In this document: piece after piece, positions 2,861 through 32,000 of the stretch
Position numbering within the stretch: the first letter of the stretch is position 1
Layout: every line of letters starts with the position of its first letter
Assembly: GCF_000008565.1 (NCBI RefSeq)
Contig: NC_001263.1
Coordinates: 645,776-677,775 of the forward strand
Direction: 5' to 3'
Length of the DNA stretch: 32,000 nucleotides
From: Deinococcus radiodurans R1 = ATCC 13939 = DSM 20539
GTDB lineage: Bacteria; Deinococcota; Deinococci; Deinococcales; Deinococcaceae
Program-made: the position numbers and the translations under genes
Notes under the pieces: generated by a model
Seen by the model: the letters and a program-made list of their open reading frames with translations, nothing else
Told to the model about the DNA's origin: nothing
The model's database searches: none

Positions 2861-3568
2861 ATGAACTTCTCCACTTCCTTCTGGCAGGGCTTCCGGGCGC
2901 TGGTGCCGCTGTGGCTGGGCACGGTGCCCTTTGCGCTGGCCTACGCCGTGACGGCCCGGGCGGCGGGTCTGAGCGTGGGGGACACCTGCCTGATGAGCCT
3001 GACCACCTTCGCCGGGGCCTCGCAGTTCGCGGCGGCGGGGCTGTTCGGCGCCCACGCGGGCGGGCTGAGCATCGTCCTGACCACCTTTTTGCTCAACGCC
3101 CGGCATCTGCTCTACGGCCTGAGCCTGGCGCGGGAGCTGCGGCTGACCCTGCCCCAGCGCGTGGTTGCCGCGCAGTTTCTGACCGATGAGGCGTATGGCG
3201 TGGCGGTGGTCAGCGGCGCCCGGTTGCCCGGCGGCCTGACCTTCGCCTTTCTGCTCGGCGCCGAACTCAGCCTGTACCTGTCGTGGAATGTCAGCACCCT
3301 GCTCGGCGCCCTTGCCGGGTCGGTGCTGCCCCCGCCCGAGCAGCTCGGGGTGGGCGTGGTCTTTCCGCTCGCTTTCCTCGGGCTGCTGGTGCCGCTGGTC
3401 GTGGACCGCCTCAGCCTGCTGGTGGCGCTGGCCGCTGGCCTGGGCGGGTGGGCGCTCTCGCGGGTGCTGCCGGGCGGGCTGGTCATCCTGCTCGCCGGGG
3501 TCGGCGGGGCGCTGCTGGGGGCGGCCCTGCTCACGCGGCGGGAACAGCGGGCGGGAGTGCGGGCATGA
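2861..3568 (+). CDS. azlC: AzlC family branched-chain amino acid exporter subunit
   Basis: 235-aa polytopic membrane ORF with AzlC-like FALAYAV...LMSLTTFAGASQFAA. Stop overlaps the next start (ATGA at 3565-3568). Confidence 0.85.
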   Translation: MNFSTSFWQGFRALVPLWLGTVPFALAYAVTARAAGLSVGDTCLMSLTTFAGASQFAAAGLFGAHAGGLSIVLTTFLLNARHLLYGLSLARELRLTLPQRVVAAQFLTDEAYGVAVVSGARLPGGLTFAFLLGAELSLYLSWNVSTLLGALAGSVLPPPEQLGVGVVFPLAFLGLLVPLVVDRLSLLVALAAGLGGWALSRVLPGGLVILLAGVGGALLGAALLTRREQRAGVRA

Positions 3569-6858: not shown

Positions 6859-6935
<77 letters not shown>

Positions 6936-6949
6936 TTGCACGCAAAATC

Positions 6950-7026
6950 TGGTCGGGAAGACAGGATTCGAACCTGCGACCCCCTGGTCCCAAACCAGGT
7001 GCGCTACCGGCCTGCGCTACTTCCCG
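6950..7026 (-). tRNA. tRNA-Pro (anticodon UGG)
   Basis: Minus strand: CGGGAAGTAGCGCAGGCCGGTAGCGCACCTGGTTTGGGACCAGGGGGTCGCAGGTTCGAATCCTGTCTTCCCGACCA. It is 77 nt, with a perfect anticodon stem CCTGG/CCAGG, loop TTTGGGA and encoded CCA. Confidence 0.92.
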
Positions 7027-27463: not shown

Positions 27464-27940
27464 TTGCGACTCGGACGACATGGAATACGGGAAGTCATAA
27501 ACTTCTTACAAACATGCAACACTAACGGTAATTTGCCTGATAAGATATTCATTGTTAGCCCATACTATACCCATGCCGCCGGAAATAAGCTTTTGGTCTC
27601 TCTGATTAATAAGGGTGTTAAGGTTTCAGTATTAATACAAAGTGAAGCTTGGGACAATGGAAGCCCGTCGATAAACCAAAAACTAATTATTGATCTAAAC
27701 AATGCTGTCGGCAAAAGCATCGTGAAAAAGTGCGATGATCTTCACGCTAAGATTTTTATCTTCTCGTATCCAGACGGTAGCAGGGAAACTTGGATAGGAT
27801 CATCAAATTTTACATTTAAGGCTGATGGGAAGATTTACTATAATAGTCGCAAAAATATAGAGACAATTGAAAAAATAGTTATTGATTCTCAAATTGAAGC
27901 AGAACTACGTCAAATGTGGAAAAGTGGAGTATTCGTATGA
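27464..27940 (+). CDS. Single-HKD phospholipase D superfamily protein (Nuc-like nuclease candidate)
   Basis: TTG start 5 nt after the GGAGG core of AGGAGGA. HKD motif LHAKIFIFSYPDGSRETWIGSSNFT (His codon 27743-27745, Asn codon 27806-27808). 158 aa. AT-rich codon usage unlike the host. Confidence 0.75.
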   Translation: MRLGRHGIREVINFLQTCNTNGNLPDKIFIVSPYYTHAAGNKLLVSLINKGVKVSVLIQSEAWDNGSPSINQKLIIDLNNAVGKSIVKKCDDLHAKIFIFSYPDGSRETWIGSSNFTFKADGKIYYNSRKNIETIEKIVIDSQIEAELRQMWKSGVFV

Positions 27941-28422
27941 AACGATATTGGGTTGTGCTGGCTAAATATAATATCCACGATTTTCACAATCAAGAATCGA
28001 ATTACATAATTGAATCATTATGGAATACGATAAATTTAGATGAAAAAGTGGAAGGTCATGCCAATTTGGAAATCCATCTTGATAGCAACACCGGAATAGT
28101 AAATGCGGGTTTTATTTTGTATTGCGAAAAAAGTTTAGCGAGAAGGATAACCACTCGCCTAAGTCGATATGTATATTTCCAAGATTATAGGGAGAAGCAG
28201 ATAATAGATACTGAGTACGGCTTATCTAAAGTAAATGCCAACGAGATAATGCTGATTGATCTTCTTAGTTACCTAAAATTTGAATCTTTACAATACTATC
28301 ACTCAGGAAAAGTTGAAATTGAGTTTATTTGGCGAAATTTCGACTTCATTATTGAGAAGGTAATACCAGAATTTGAATTAAACAGGGCAGATCGAGATTC
28401 ACAGGAAGATGAACCTTTCTAA
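27937..28422 (+). CDS. Hypothetical protein coupled to the PLD gene
   Basis: ATG at 27937 overlaps the PLD stop (ATGA). 161 aa (MKRYWVVLAKYNIHDFHNQ...). No motif I recognise. Acidic C-terminus RADRDSQEDEPF. Confidence 0.5.
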   Translation: MKRYWVVLAKYNIHDFHNQESNYIIESLWNTINLDEKVEGHANLEIHLDSNTGIVNAGFILYCEKSLARRITTRLSRYVYFQDYREKQIIDTEYGLSKVNANEIMLIDLLSYLKFESLQYYHSGKVEIEFIWRNFDFIIEKVIPEFELNRADRDSQEDEPF

Positions 28423-29150
28423 ATACCTATATAGAATGAGGAGTATATCTGATTGTCGCAAGCGACTTGCATCATTGAATTAAATTCGTCTGAATATTTT
28501 GCATTCATCTGTCGAATCTGGCAATCCCTTATTTTATCACCCAGAATCGATTTGCCCATAACCAGAAGATACTTTTTGGTTAAAGGAAAATAGAGTTCGG
28601 CGCCATCTTTTCCGATGCCTTGACTCATTGTAAGCGACATTTTACCTGTTCCACAATCTGTTATGCCAGTAATAACAGGAACATCGCTCGTTATATATGG
28701 GGAATCGGAGGGTACTTCGAGAAATTGAAATGTGAAGTTTGACAAGTGGCCTTTTATCTTGGGAAGGCTACTACTAATATTATTATCGAGCATGATTAAA
28801 TGTGTAATTTTGGCAAAATCATCCTGACTCAAGGTTGTACCGGGCTGACCGACTTCCCTTGCTGCCAAATCGAAGGTTTGCTCCCTGATCCTAGGTGTAC
28901 GAAGAAGCTGCAAGCCGACAATTTCAGCAAGCATAGATTTATGATTATGGTTCATAAATCTATGCTTGGCGTCCAAATTTAAGGTCAAATCTCTGATAAA
29001 TCGCGAGTGAATCGCTTCAAAATTATCCGAGATTTGCTTCTCAAGATAATAGGGGTCATCATGCTTTACACCCTTTATATCAACGGTATGGAAATTTCTT
29101 TCCACCGCTATGCCCTCTGGACTGGTCTTAAATGTCTTTTTCCTAGTTTT
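28419..29150 (-). pseudogene. DUF4238 family protein, 3' portion (codons 32-274 of the reconstructed ORF), separated from its 5' end by the IS
   Basis: The frame of track ORF 28419..29105 stays open upstream to the exact IS boundary at 29150 (KTRKKTFKTSPEGIA-VERNFHTVD...). It contains a YITSDVPV motif like the SDNPV motif of DUF4238. Confidence 0.8.
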
Positions 29151-29300
29151 TTGAACCTCACACGACTAAAGTCGCGTGATTCTCACTTCGCAGACCATTG
29201 CCCGCCGAAGCAGGTCTGACATAGCCTCCATGAGCGTTTAAGGTGTCTGAGATTCCCGCAGCCACCAACGCTTCACGCCGAATGTTCAGCGCAGCGTTCT
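29135..29300 (-). ncRNA. TnpB guide RNA (omegaRNA/reRNA): scaffold from the tnpB 3' end and RE, plus ~16-nt read-through guide. The 5' boundary is not determinable from sequence.
   Basis: The minus strand reads ...GTCAGACCTGCTTCGGCGGGCAATGGTCTGCGAAGTGAGAATCACGCGACTTTAGTCGTGTGAGGTTCAA, ending at the IS end (29151). Nested stems are CAGACC/GGTCTG (29191-29218) and TCACACGAC/GTCGCGTGA (29158-29179). The flanking 29150-29135 (AAAACTAGGAAAAAGA) would be the guide. This matches my memory of the published ISDra2 scaffold. Confidence 0.7.
29158..29179 (-). repeat. RE subterminal imperfect palindrome
   Basis: The minus strand reads TCACGCGAC-TTTA-GTCGTGTGA with one mismatch. It is similar to the LE hairpin. 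Confidence 0.7.
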
Positions 29301-30384
29301 CGTCTCGGTCATGGGTTTCCCCACAGTTCGGGCAAGTCCATGTACGGACGGCAAGATTCTTCACTTCGGGATTCTTGAATCCGCAGTCATGACACAACTG
29401 GCTAGATGGAAAGTAGGGGCTGACTTTAGATACCAGTCGCCCGTACCACGCTGCCTTGTATTCCAACTGCCGGATGAACTCACCCCAGCCCGCATCACTG
29501 ATGCTCAGTGCAAGGCGGCGATTTTTCCGCATGTTGTCGGGTTTAAGGTGTTCGGTTCCGATGATTTCGTACTCACGCACCAGGGAGGTGGTGAGCTTGT
29601 GAAGGAAATCCTGACGCTTATTGACAATGCGCTTGTGAATCCGAGCCAGCTTGGTTTTCGCTTTCCCGTAACGTGCGCTGCCCTTCTTCCGTCTGGACAG
29701 GGTTTGCTGAGCTTTACGAAGTCTTTTCAGGGTGGAGCGGTAATATTTCGGATTCTGTTCATGCTTAAACCTCACGCCATCGGTCACGATGGCAAAATCC
29801 TTGATGCCGACATCCACACCCGCTGCAAACTTGGGAGCCGCAGGCAGGTAGGGAATCTCGACTTCACAGAGAACGGACGCTTCGTAATGGCCTTCGTGAA
29901 TACGGCGCACAGTGACATTCAGAATCTTCCCTTGAATATCCTGCTGGCCCTTGGTTTTCACCCATCCCAGCTTAGGAAGTTTGAGCCTACCTTCCCCAAT
30001 TTGGATGTTGTTGTTGGTGAATTGAGTCCGGTAGGACTCTCCCGTGCGCTTCTTTCTGAAACGTGGGAATCCTACCTTTTTACCGGACTGCTTCACAGTC
30101 CGAAAGAAGTTCTTGTACGCGGTCTCAAGGTTTTTCAGCGAGTTCTGCAAAGCAAACTTATCTACTTCCGAGAGCCAGGAGGTTTCTTCAGCCTGCTTCA
30201 GAAGGGTCAGTTCGCTACTCGTTTGCCCGTAGGTCAGTCCCTTCCCGCTTTCCTTGTAGGCCGCAATGCGACGGGCAAGGAAGTGGTTGTAGACGAACCT
30301 TGCGCTACCCAGCGTGCGGTTAATCAGTTCAGTCTGAGCCGCATTTGGGTACAGCCTGACCACGAAAGCCTTATTCCTTATCAT
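29158..30384 (-). CDS. tnpB: TnpB, RNA-guided RuvC-type DNA endonuclease (IS605 OrfB family)
   Basis: 408 aa. [18 protein letters not shown]-terminus. RuvC motifs [17 protein letters not shown] and [11 protein letters not shown]. Zinc finger CHDCG...CPNCG. I recognise the sequence as ISDra2 TnpB. Confidence 0.95.
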
Positions 30385-30793
30385 GCTGGCTCTCTATGTA
30401 TTTCTGAATCTGAGCGCGGGTGTTTTCAGAAACAGTCAGGATGCAATACGACGGGTTCCAGAGATTGCCGCCCCACAGCTTTTCTTTCAACTGCGGGTAG
30501 GCCACGAACATCCGACGTGCGGAAGCGCCTTTCAGCGCCTTCACGAAGTCGGGGATGGCTTGCTGTGGGGTTGCGCTTAGCAGGAGGTGAACGTGGTCAG
30601 GCATGACTTCCATCGTGATGACTTCCAGCCCGTTCTGAGCGGCAATGTCACGCAGGATGTCTTTCAGTCCATCAGCAACCTCACCCACCAACACCTGATG
30701 ACGGTATTTCACGCACCAGATGAGGTGGTATTCAAGCTGATAGACGTAACCCCGGCCTTTCTTCATCTCAAGGGGAAGAATAACATATGTCAT
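30371..30793 (-). CDS. tnpA: IS200/IS605 Y1 (HUH) transposase TnpA
   Basis: 140 aa. HUH motif PDHVHLLL. Catalytic Tyr in the C-terminal helix QKYIESQ (Y132). Confidence 0.93.
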
Positions 30794-30850
30794 CTGGAAA
30801 AGCTAGAGGCTTCCGCTTTTCATCGCCCTTTTCAGGGCGAGAGGGGCTAA

Positions 30851-30870
30851 CTCATGACTGAAGTCACGAG
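30851..30870 (-). repeat. LE subterminal imperfect palindrome
   Basis: The minus strand reads CTCGTGAC-TTCA-GTCATGAG with one mismatch. A second hairpin, TCGCCC-TTTTCA-GGGCGA, lies at 30823-30840. Confidence 0.7.
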
Positions 30871-30886
30871 TGTGCGCCCCTCAAGC

Positions 30887-30978
30887 ATCAAGCACGAACA
30901 GCTTACCATCCGAATCACAGAACTCTCTCAAATAATATTGAGGAACCCAGTGGTGTCTGATTGGTTCATTATTTGCCA

Positions 30979-30979
<1 letters not shown>
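30887..30979 (-). pseudogene. DUF4238 family protein, 5' portion (codons 1-31), ending in the TTGAT insertion site
   Basis: The minus strand translates as MANNEPIRHHWVPQYYLREFCDSDGKLFVLD. HHWVPQYYLREF matches the HYVPQFYLRxF N-terminal signature of DUF4238. The ATG overlaps the carB stop (TAATG). Confidence 0.8.

Positions 30980-32000
<1,021 letters not shown>

Follow-up and report, generated by a model that had tools for sequence, protein, structure and literature searches.

The window analysed here is a stretch of 32,000 nucleotides (nt) of Deinococcus radiodurans R1 (contig NC_001263.1, positions 645,776 to 677,775 of the forward strand). On its minus strand it was found to hold a complete copy of the insertion sequence (IS) ISDra2 (IS200/IS605 family, IS605 group), with a length of 1736 bp as published for this element (Pasternak et al., 2010; PMC2806898). 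The copy is recently inserted and fully intact, lying 3' of a TTGAT motif in a gene for a DUF4238 protein just downstream of carB. Along the minus strand the order is GTGC TTGAT, GCTTGAGGGG (the left end, LE), tnpA, tnpB and GTGTGAGGTTCAA, followed by AAAACTAGGAAAAAGA CATT. The junction at LE reads TTGAT-GCTTGAGG and that at the right end (RE) reads TTCAA-AAAACTAGG (Table 1).

The product of tnpA was 100% identical over its full length to PDB 2XM3 and matched Pfam Y1_Tnp with an E value of 2e-43, and a residue check found the HUH motif and the catalytic Y132 in place. Downstream of tnpA, with an overlap of 14 nt, lies tnpB, the product of which was 100% identical over its full length to the proteins of PDB entries 8BF8, 8EX9, 8EXA and 8H1J; the entries matched, that of TnpA included, represent ISDra2 proteins that were crystallised or solved by cryo-electron microscopy (cryo-EM). 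The RuvC triad D191/E278/D361 is intact, and the residues which read the transposon-associated motif (TAM), namely Y52, S56, K76, F77, Q80, T123 and N124, were all found in TnpB. Compared with the ISDra2 copies of CP150840.1, CP050116.1 and CP050120.1, the window copy showed 0 mismatches. A decayed copy of ISDra2 was excluded by the 100% protein identities, these copies without mismatch and the exact IS-free alleles described below.

Table 1. Features of the ISDra2 locus in window coordinates, with the basis of each assignment.
Feature	Position	Strand	Basis
ISDra2	29151..30886	-	empty-site comparison, identity with other copies, published length
TTGAT, TnpA target/left cleavage site and TnpB TAM; host flank, outside the IS	30887..30891	-	TAM identity from PMC8612924
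LE with subterminal imperfect hairpin (inner stem-loop 30850-30871, outer stem 30841-30882)	30841..30886	-	single-stranded DNA (ssDNA) fold
tnpA, Y1 HUH transposase, 140 amino acids (aa), H67-V-H69 and Y132	30371..30793	-	identity with PDB 2XM3, Pfam Y1_Tnp
tnpB, RNA-guided RuvC nuclease, 408 aa, D191/E278/D361	29158..30384	-	PDB identity, Pfam
omegaRNA (reRNA) scaffold, positions -116 to -1	29151..29266	-	published nucleotide numbering
RE subterminal imperfect hairpin, TnpA binding site and omegaRNA stem	29158..29179	-	ssDNA fold
TTCAA, last 5 nt of the IS, right cleavage motif ('TEM')	29151..29155	-	sequence
Host flank, predicted 16-nt guide (+1..+16) AAAACTAGGAAAAAGA, also protospacer of the empty allele	29135..29150	-	omegaRNA register
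DUF4238 gene, 5' fragment of 31 codons; its ATG overlaps the carB stop	30887..30979	-	joined open reading frame (ORF)
DUF4238 gene, 3' fragment	28419..29150	-	joined ORF, Pfam

The ends of ISDra2 were set by comparison with IS-free alleles in five D. radiodurans sequences. Both LE and RE carry subterminal imperfect hairpins and no terminal inverted repeats are present, as expected for this family. The LE hairpin, folded as ssDNA, gave -13.4 kcal/mol (z = -3.1), and the 20-mer of the RE hairpin occurs a single time in the window. The insertion lies 3' of TTGAT, and when the occupied allele was set against the five empty ones neither a target-site duplication nor any scar was seen.

The empty allele was recovered by a look-up of the protein obtained on joining the two DUF4238 fragments, followed by analysis of the DNA of the matching contigs. 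The joined fragments form an intact ORF of 274 aa covering positions 1-278 of the 281 of Pfam DUF4238, with the 3' fragment alone beginning at model position 43. This 274-aa protein was 100% identical over 100% of its length to a D. radiodurans protein (P0001) present on several hundred contigs. The intact protein of the empty allele was indexed in 358 collection blocks, with at least three complete chromosomes among them. The occupied allele was represented by its truncated 228-aa product in 40 blocks, all of contigs below 10 kb and several of them metagenome assemblies of PRJEB12287.

The IS-free allele, TTGAT/AAAACTAGGAAAAAGA, was present in three complete chromosomes (CP150840.1, CP031500.1 and CP015081.1) and in two Logan read assemblies. 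A joint of 100 nt reading gtgcTTGAT/AAAACTAGGAAAAAGACATT was matched exactly in 5/5 of these sequences, none of which showed an ISDra2 end near the joint, and the flanks of the empty and occupied alleles had 0 mismatches over 1114 nt on the left and 2000 nt on the right (3.1 kb). As the joint is exact and the flanks are free of mismatches, there was no target duplication and no scar; the boundaries, the lack of a target duplication and the empty-allele sequence thus count as observations, not as predictions. A preliminary description of this locus had placed TTGAT at 30891-30887 of the minus strand, immediately 5' of LE, and had expected precise excision to join it to AAAACTAGGAAAAAGA. The position was confirmed to the base, and the joint is the one found in the five IS-free sequences. 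An exact scan of the genome_contigs collection for the 28-nt donor joint gave no match, and a scan with a 28-mer of RE gave matches from other species only and no D. radiodurans record; it seems that a D. radiodurans representative is missing from this collection or masked in it.

It could be argued that motif and flank lie together by accident or that the ends are misplaced, such that excision would not give TTGAT/AAAACTAGG, given that TTGAT is a frequent motif (30 copies in the window against 27 expected). This is next to impossible, as it is refuted by the natural empty alleles with their exact joint and perfect flanks, by the other copies, which share the ends and TTGAT, and by the published omegaRNA numbering, which stops at the same base. 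The placement of TTGAT at the left end is not due to chance, because all other recovered copies of ISDra2 have TTGAT directly 5' of an identical LE. Misplaced boundaries were excluded by the empty alleles and the shared ends of these copies.

To place the guide, the numbering of Nakagawa et al. (2023; PMC10097598) was used, in which the omegaRNA runs from -231 to -1; the precursor expressed in that structural work starts at -231, equivalent to window position 29381. The bases named there are -231G, -117T, -116G, -106G, -105G to -103A, -102U, -85G, -84C, -81A, -80U, -36G, -35U, -32G, -31A, -6G, -5U to -3C and -2A. All 22 of the positions checked (22/22) agreed with the window at the matching offset, which sets -1 at 29151 and the guide +1 at 29150, the first base of the flank. 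The earlier assignment of AAAACTAGGAAAAAGA (29150-29135), immediately 3' of RE, as the guide-encoding flank was thereby borne out. The scaffold overlaps the 3' end of tnpB, with the tnpB stop codon at -10..-8. Published numbering was used to check the scaffold in place of an Rfam family, as Rfam at a permissive threshold gave no family match for the ISDra2 omegaRNA within 28900-31100. A guide of ~16 nt derived from the flank was previously seen by small-RNA sequencing (Karvelis et al., 2021; PMC8612924).

With the IS in place, the bases directly 5' of the guide match are TTCAA, with which the IS ends, and the LE sequence which follows TTGAT fits the guide at 4/16 positions. Elsewhere in the window AAAACTAGGAAAAAGA has no second match even when 3 mismatches are allowed, and the best of the other TTGAT sites fits 8/16 guide positions with a seed of 1 nt. 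As TTCAA stands in the place of the TAM and TTGAT is followed by LE, the occupied allele holds no TAM-plus-target; TAM and guide match occur together only on the empty allele and nowhere else in the window. The claim that a perfect TnpB target is absent while the IS is present therefore held. The two differences between TTCAA and TTGAT fall at positions 3 and 5, equivalent to TAM positions -3 and -1. In the cryo-EM structure the -3 G is read by K76 through a bidentate hydrogen bond and the -1 T by Y52/S56, and the mutations K76A and Y52A abolish cleavage by ISDra2 TnpB. On the basis of this structure and mutagenesis we infer, with good foundation, that TTCAA is non-permissive as a TAM for ISDra2 TnpB. 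The TAM and the right-end TEM also differ at positions 3 and 5 in the ISGst elements (Meers et al., 2023; bioRxiv 10.1101/2023.03.14.532601).

This arrangement corresponds to the donor-joint model, which was first proposed by Karvelis et al. (2021; PMC8612924, Fig. 3c) for ISDra2 itself. In that work TnpB was found to carry an RNA of about 150 nt, the last ~16 nt of which derive from the flank, TTGAT was identified both as the TAM and as the TnpA target, and the donor joint of another ISDra2 copy was cut by TnpB in vitro and in E. coli. Repair of the break from a sister copy, as in intron homing, was also proposed there. The supplement of Karvelis et al. gives pGB72 as TTGAT-GAGTCCCTTGGCGCCC and pGB73 as the same target behind AACTA. 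The pGB72 sequence corresponds to the joint of L016/L020, a copy recovered here, so that the substrate had been put together from TTGAT and flank in the same manner as the joint predicted for the window, only for another copy. The window 16-mer AAAACTAGGAAAAAGA does not appear in the supplement. Meers et al. (2023; bioRxiv 10.1101/2023.03.14.532601) described scarless excision, cleavage of the native donor joint and retention raised by TnpB for Geobacillus elements, with retention of ISGst measured in E. coli, and reproduced the activity of DraTnpB on its native donor joint. The preliminary description had recognised a retention or homing geometry and attributed the model to Meers et al.; the geometry matches the published model, but the proposal belongs to Karvelis et al. 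and it was retention that Meers et al. showed. A polymerase chain reaction (PCR) for the donor joint after gamma-irradiation had been carried out by Pasternak et al. (2010; PMC2806898) on an engineered ISDra2 derivative placed elsewhere, in the tetA gene. The mechanism is thus already known for the same element, organism and model, and only the flank and its 16-nt guide are particular to this locus.

For the window copy, the identity of the element, its boundaries, the guide register, the empty allele and the lack of a TAM-plus-target in the occupied allele were observed here; omegaRNA formation, TAM dependence, cleavage of the other copy's joint and retention in related elements are taken from the literature. 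Together they suggest the following course of events. TnpA would excise the top strand, which is the minus strand of the window, with cuts 3' of TTGAT at LE and 3' of TTCAA at RE, and the donor would be resealed without a scar. Transcription through tnpB and RE would run into the flank, and the omegaRNA retained by TnpB would consist of the final ~116-150 nt followed by about 16 nt of flank, with AAAACTAGGAAAAAGA as the predicted guide. TnpB needs TTGAT directly 5' of the guide match, so that the occupied allele should be immune because TTCAA fills the place of the TAM and TTGAT, 1.7 kb away, precedes LE sequence. After excision, or on a naive copy of the chromosome, TTGAT/AAAACTAGGAAAAAGA would be cut by TnpB about 15-21 bp into the target, and the element would be restored by recombination, the template being a sister that bears the IS or a further copy of the genome (retention or homing). 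Cleavage and repair at the carB/DUF4238 joint may accordingly be expected in D. radiodurans. Taken as a whole, an intact ISDra2 maintained by donor-joint cutting and recombinational restoration is very probably the best explanation of the locus.

Several points weigh against this explanation. The discrimination against TTCAA was deduced from structure and mutagenesis, and when the literature was searched for experiments trying TTCAA directly as a TAM, no paper containing both motifs was found. GC skew in the window was too weak to assign the active strand to the lagging-strand template. No demonstration of TnpB-driven retention in D. radiodurans itself was found in the literature searched, and we know of none in this native host. 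The carB/DUF4238 joint could also be cut much less efficiently than the pGB72 joint, because its guide is purine-rich with 25% G+C compared with the 75% G+C of the tested target. Finally, earlier D. radiodurans work, as far as it is cited by Karvelis et al. (2021; ref. 5 in PMC8612924), described TnpB as an inhibitor of ISDra2 excision and insertion.

This last result forms the basis of a different view, in which TnpB is mainly a regulator that damps excision and insertion by TnpA and the layout is a by-product of TnpA target choice and read-through transcription, with no homing. That TnpB is dispensable for transposition (PMC2806898) would agree with such a role. Against it stand the cleavage of the donor joint by TnpB in vitro and in E. 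coli and the call by Karvelis et al. for the earlier inhibition result to be revisited (PMC8612924), as well as the retention in related elements, which depends on the nuclease and on a matching guide (Meers et al., 2023). Cleavage of the restored site would itself give fewer recovered excisants, and the older 'inhibition' is best explained as donor-joint cleavage. A purely regulatory TnpB is therefore considered very improbable.

The outcome of the cut allows for another possibility, namely that it mostly destroys the IS-free copy of the chromosome, the IS being kept by elimination of the losers in an addiction-like manner and not by copying back. D. radiodurans carries several copies of its genome, so the loss of one would be tolerable, which speaks for this possibility; it is also exceptionally proficient in homologous repair, which speaks against it. 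A double-strand break left unrepaired is typically lethal (Meers et al., 2023), and the geometry of the sequence is equally compatible with elimination of the losers; nothing in the window separates it from copying back. However, the retention described by Meers et al. (2023) was ascribed by those authors to recombination with the sister chromosome, and elimination as the main route is judged quite improbable for ISDra2.

The composition of the guide opens a further possibility. AAAACTAGGAAAAAGA is A-rich and purine-rich, with 4 G/C in 16 nt, and the RNA-DNA hybrid it forms may be too unstable for efficient cutting, in which case the window copy would be a naturally weak link. If this were true, the copy would be poorly protected against loss, in keeping with the finding that most sequenced D. 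radiodurans R1 lineages lack it (358 against 40 blocks), and guide composition would set the persistence of TnpB elements copy by copy. Such a weak link is considered unlikely.

As a discovery the layout carries little weight. The TnpB donor-joint model was founded on this example, having been published for ISDra2 in 2021 and put to the test in relatives in 2023. Its value lies in confirmation: a scarless empty site with TAM and guide match can be verified from public genomes alone, as precisely this IS-free allele is present in sister strains. The carB/DUF4238 site, within a candidate defence gene, is also a natural pair of occupied and empty alleles with identical flanks, usable for the study of TnpB retention or homing in a native host that is polyploid and naturally transformable.

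The closest known system is ISDra2F (DR1651-DR1652; Pasternak et al., 2010), which is like the window copy in TTGAT, TnpA, TnpB, omegaRNA scaffold and donor-joint logic. We infer that the L016/L020 copy is the DR1651-DR1652 locus. Its 1736-bp sequence is identical to that of the window copy with 0 mismatches; it differs in lying at a DctM-adjacent site, whereas the window copy interrupts the DUF4238 gene by carB and has AAAACTAGGAAAAAGA as its guide. The ISGst1-5 elements of Geobacillus stearothermophilus, with TnpB or IscB (Meers et al., 2023), likewise have the TAM outside LE, a guide from the RE flank and a scarless donor joint cut by the nuclease, and empty homologous sites in sister strains served as evidence there too. 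They differ in their TAM (TTTAT and similar), TEM (TTCAC), proteins and host, and it is in ISGst that retention was measured. IS608 of Helicobacter pylori shares the peel-and-paste transposition of the IS200/IS605 family, the subterminal hairpins and a duplication-free insertion 3' of a short motif, but its motif is the tetranucleotide TTAC and HpyTnpB was inactive in the interference assay of Meers et al. As in group I intron homing endonucleases, an analogy drawn by Karvelis et al. (PMC8612924), the element interrupts its own recognition site, so that cutting is confined to the empty allele, for which the occupied one then serves as the repair template. In CRISPR-Cas12 systems the protospacer-adjacent motif (PAM) is missing from the array, just as the motif needed for cutting is absent beside the guide-encoding DNA of ISDra2. 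ISDra2 differs from both in that its RNA guide is copied from the flank at which it lands, so that specificity is reset with each insertion, and there is no adaptive spacer acquisition.

Further D. radiodurans copies were found on contigs encoding an identical TnpB. Each was 1736 bp long and matched the window copy without a mismatch, with TTGAT directly before LE and a 16-mer of its own after RE (GAGTCCCTTGGCGCCC, GTGGTCGATCATCGAG or GTTTTGTGCCTCGTCG). With the window included there were 3 distinct left flanks and 4 distinct right flanks. CP150840.1 carries two ISDra2 copies plus the empty carB/DUF4238 site, and since the guide of neither copy matches this site, it illustrates that protection is locus-specific. 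In GCA_965136095.1 (CBCRWM010000001.1; L018, 1999-3734) a copy was found with the DctM-adjacent left flank and another right flank, in an SNF2-like gene, giving the guide GTTTTGTGCCTCGTCG. The mixed flanks suggest either that two IS copies recombined or that the assembly was joined across the repeat; if the arrangement is real, excision of this copy would make a joint with no precedent as a native site. A search of plasmids for more D. radiodurans copies returned only relatives of 78-79% identity and short Clostridium matches.

The last 28 nt of RE are common to relatives of 75-80% identity from other Deinococcus genomes and a Nostoc bin, and TTGAT was found at the left end in 3/4 of those, all from other species, in which LE was visible. 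In Deinococcus sp. Arct2-2 (L007, about 3392-3400; 76-81% identical) the left boundary appeared to be CCGTTTGA/C in place of TTGAT, which could represent a TTGAC-type motif or a boundary shifted by one base. Two elements (L006, 2762-4190, and L014, about 1387 bp) are without tnpA and keep TTGAT, the left hairpin and an identical RE; they look like non-autonomous derivatives that would rely on TnpA in trans. The last 33 nt of the ISDra2 RE (hairpin and TTCAA) were also found 100% identical in plasmids of Clostridium botulinum and C. sporogenes, and the Nostoc metagenome-assembled genome L014 belongs with these plasmids in sharing the RE end module. In the C. sporogenes plasmid NZ_CP013700.1 (L021, 3001-3033) these 33 nt directly follow a tnpB whose protein is about 20% identical to that of ISDra2. 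Across phyla of very different G+C content, conservation of the end module thus far exceeds that of the nuclease.

With regard to the surroundings, the IS lies in a low-GC island (33-41% G+C compared with about 67% around it; window 27464-29150 and 30887-30979) of three genes: the interrupted DUF4238 gene, an uncharacterised ORF of 161-168 aa and a gene for a small PLDc_2 protein with weak matches to ZacB and DrmC. The stop codon of carB overlaps the start of the DUF4238 gene (TAATG, 30979-30981), so that a low-GC gene abuts a core metabolic gene without a spacer. The DUF4238 gene matched the PADLOC model DUF4238-Pers (E 1.8e-10) in its N-terminal part only, and the insertion of ISDra2 has thus knocked out a candidate defence gene in this strain. 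Pairs of PemK and PIN toxin-antitoxin genes adjoin the island. It should also be noted that the minus strand carries a tandem of tRNA-Gly(TCC) and tRNA-Pro(TGG) at window positions 6859-7026, which is unrelated to ISDra2.

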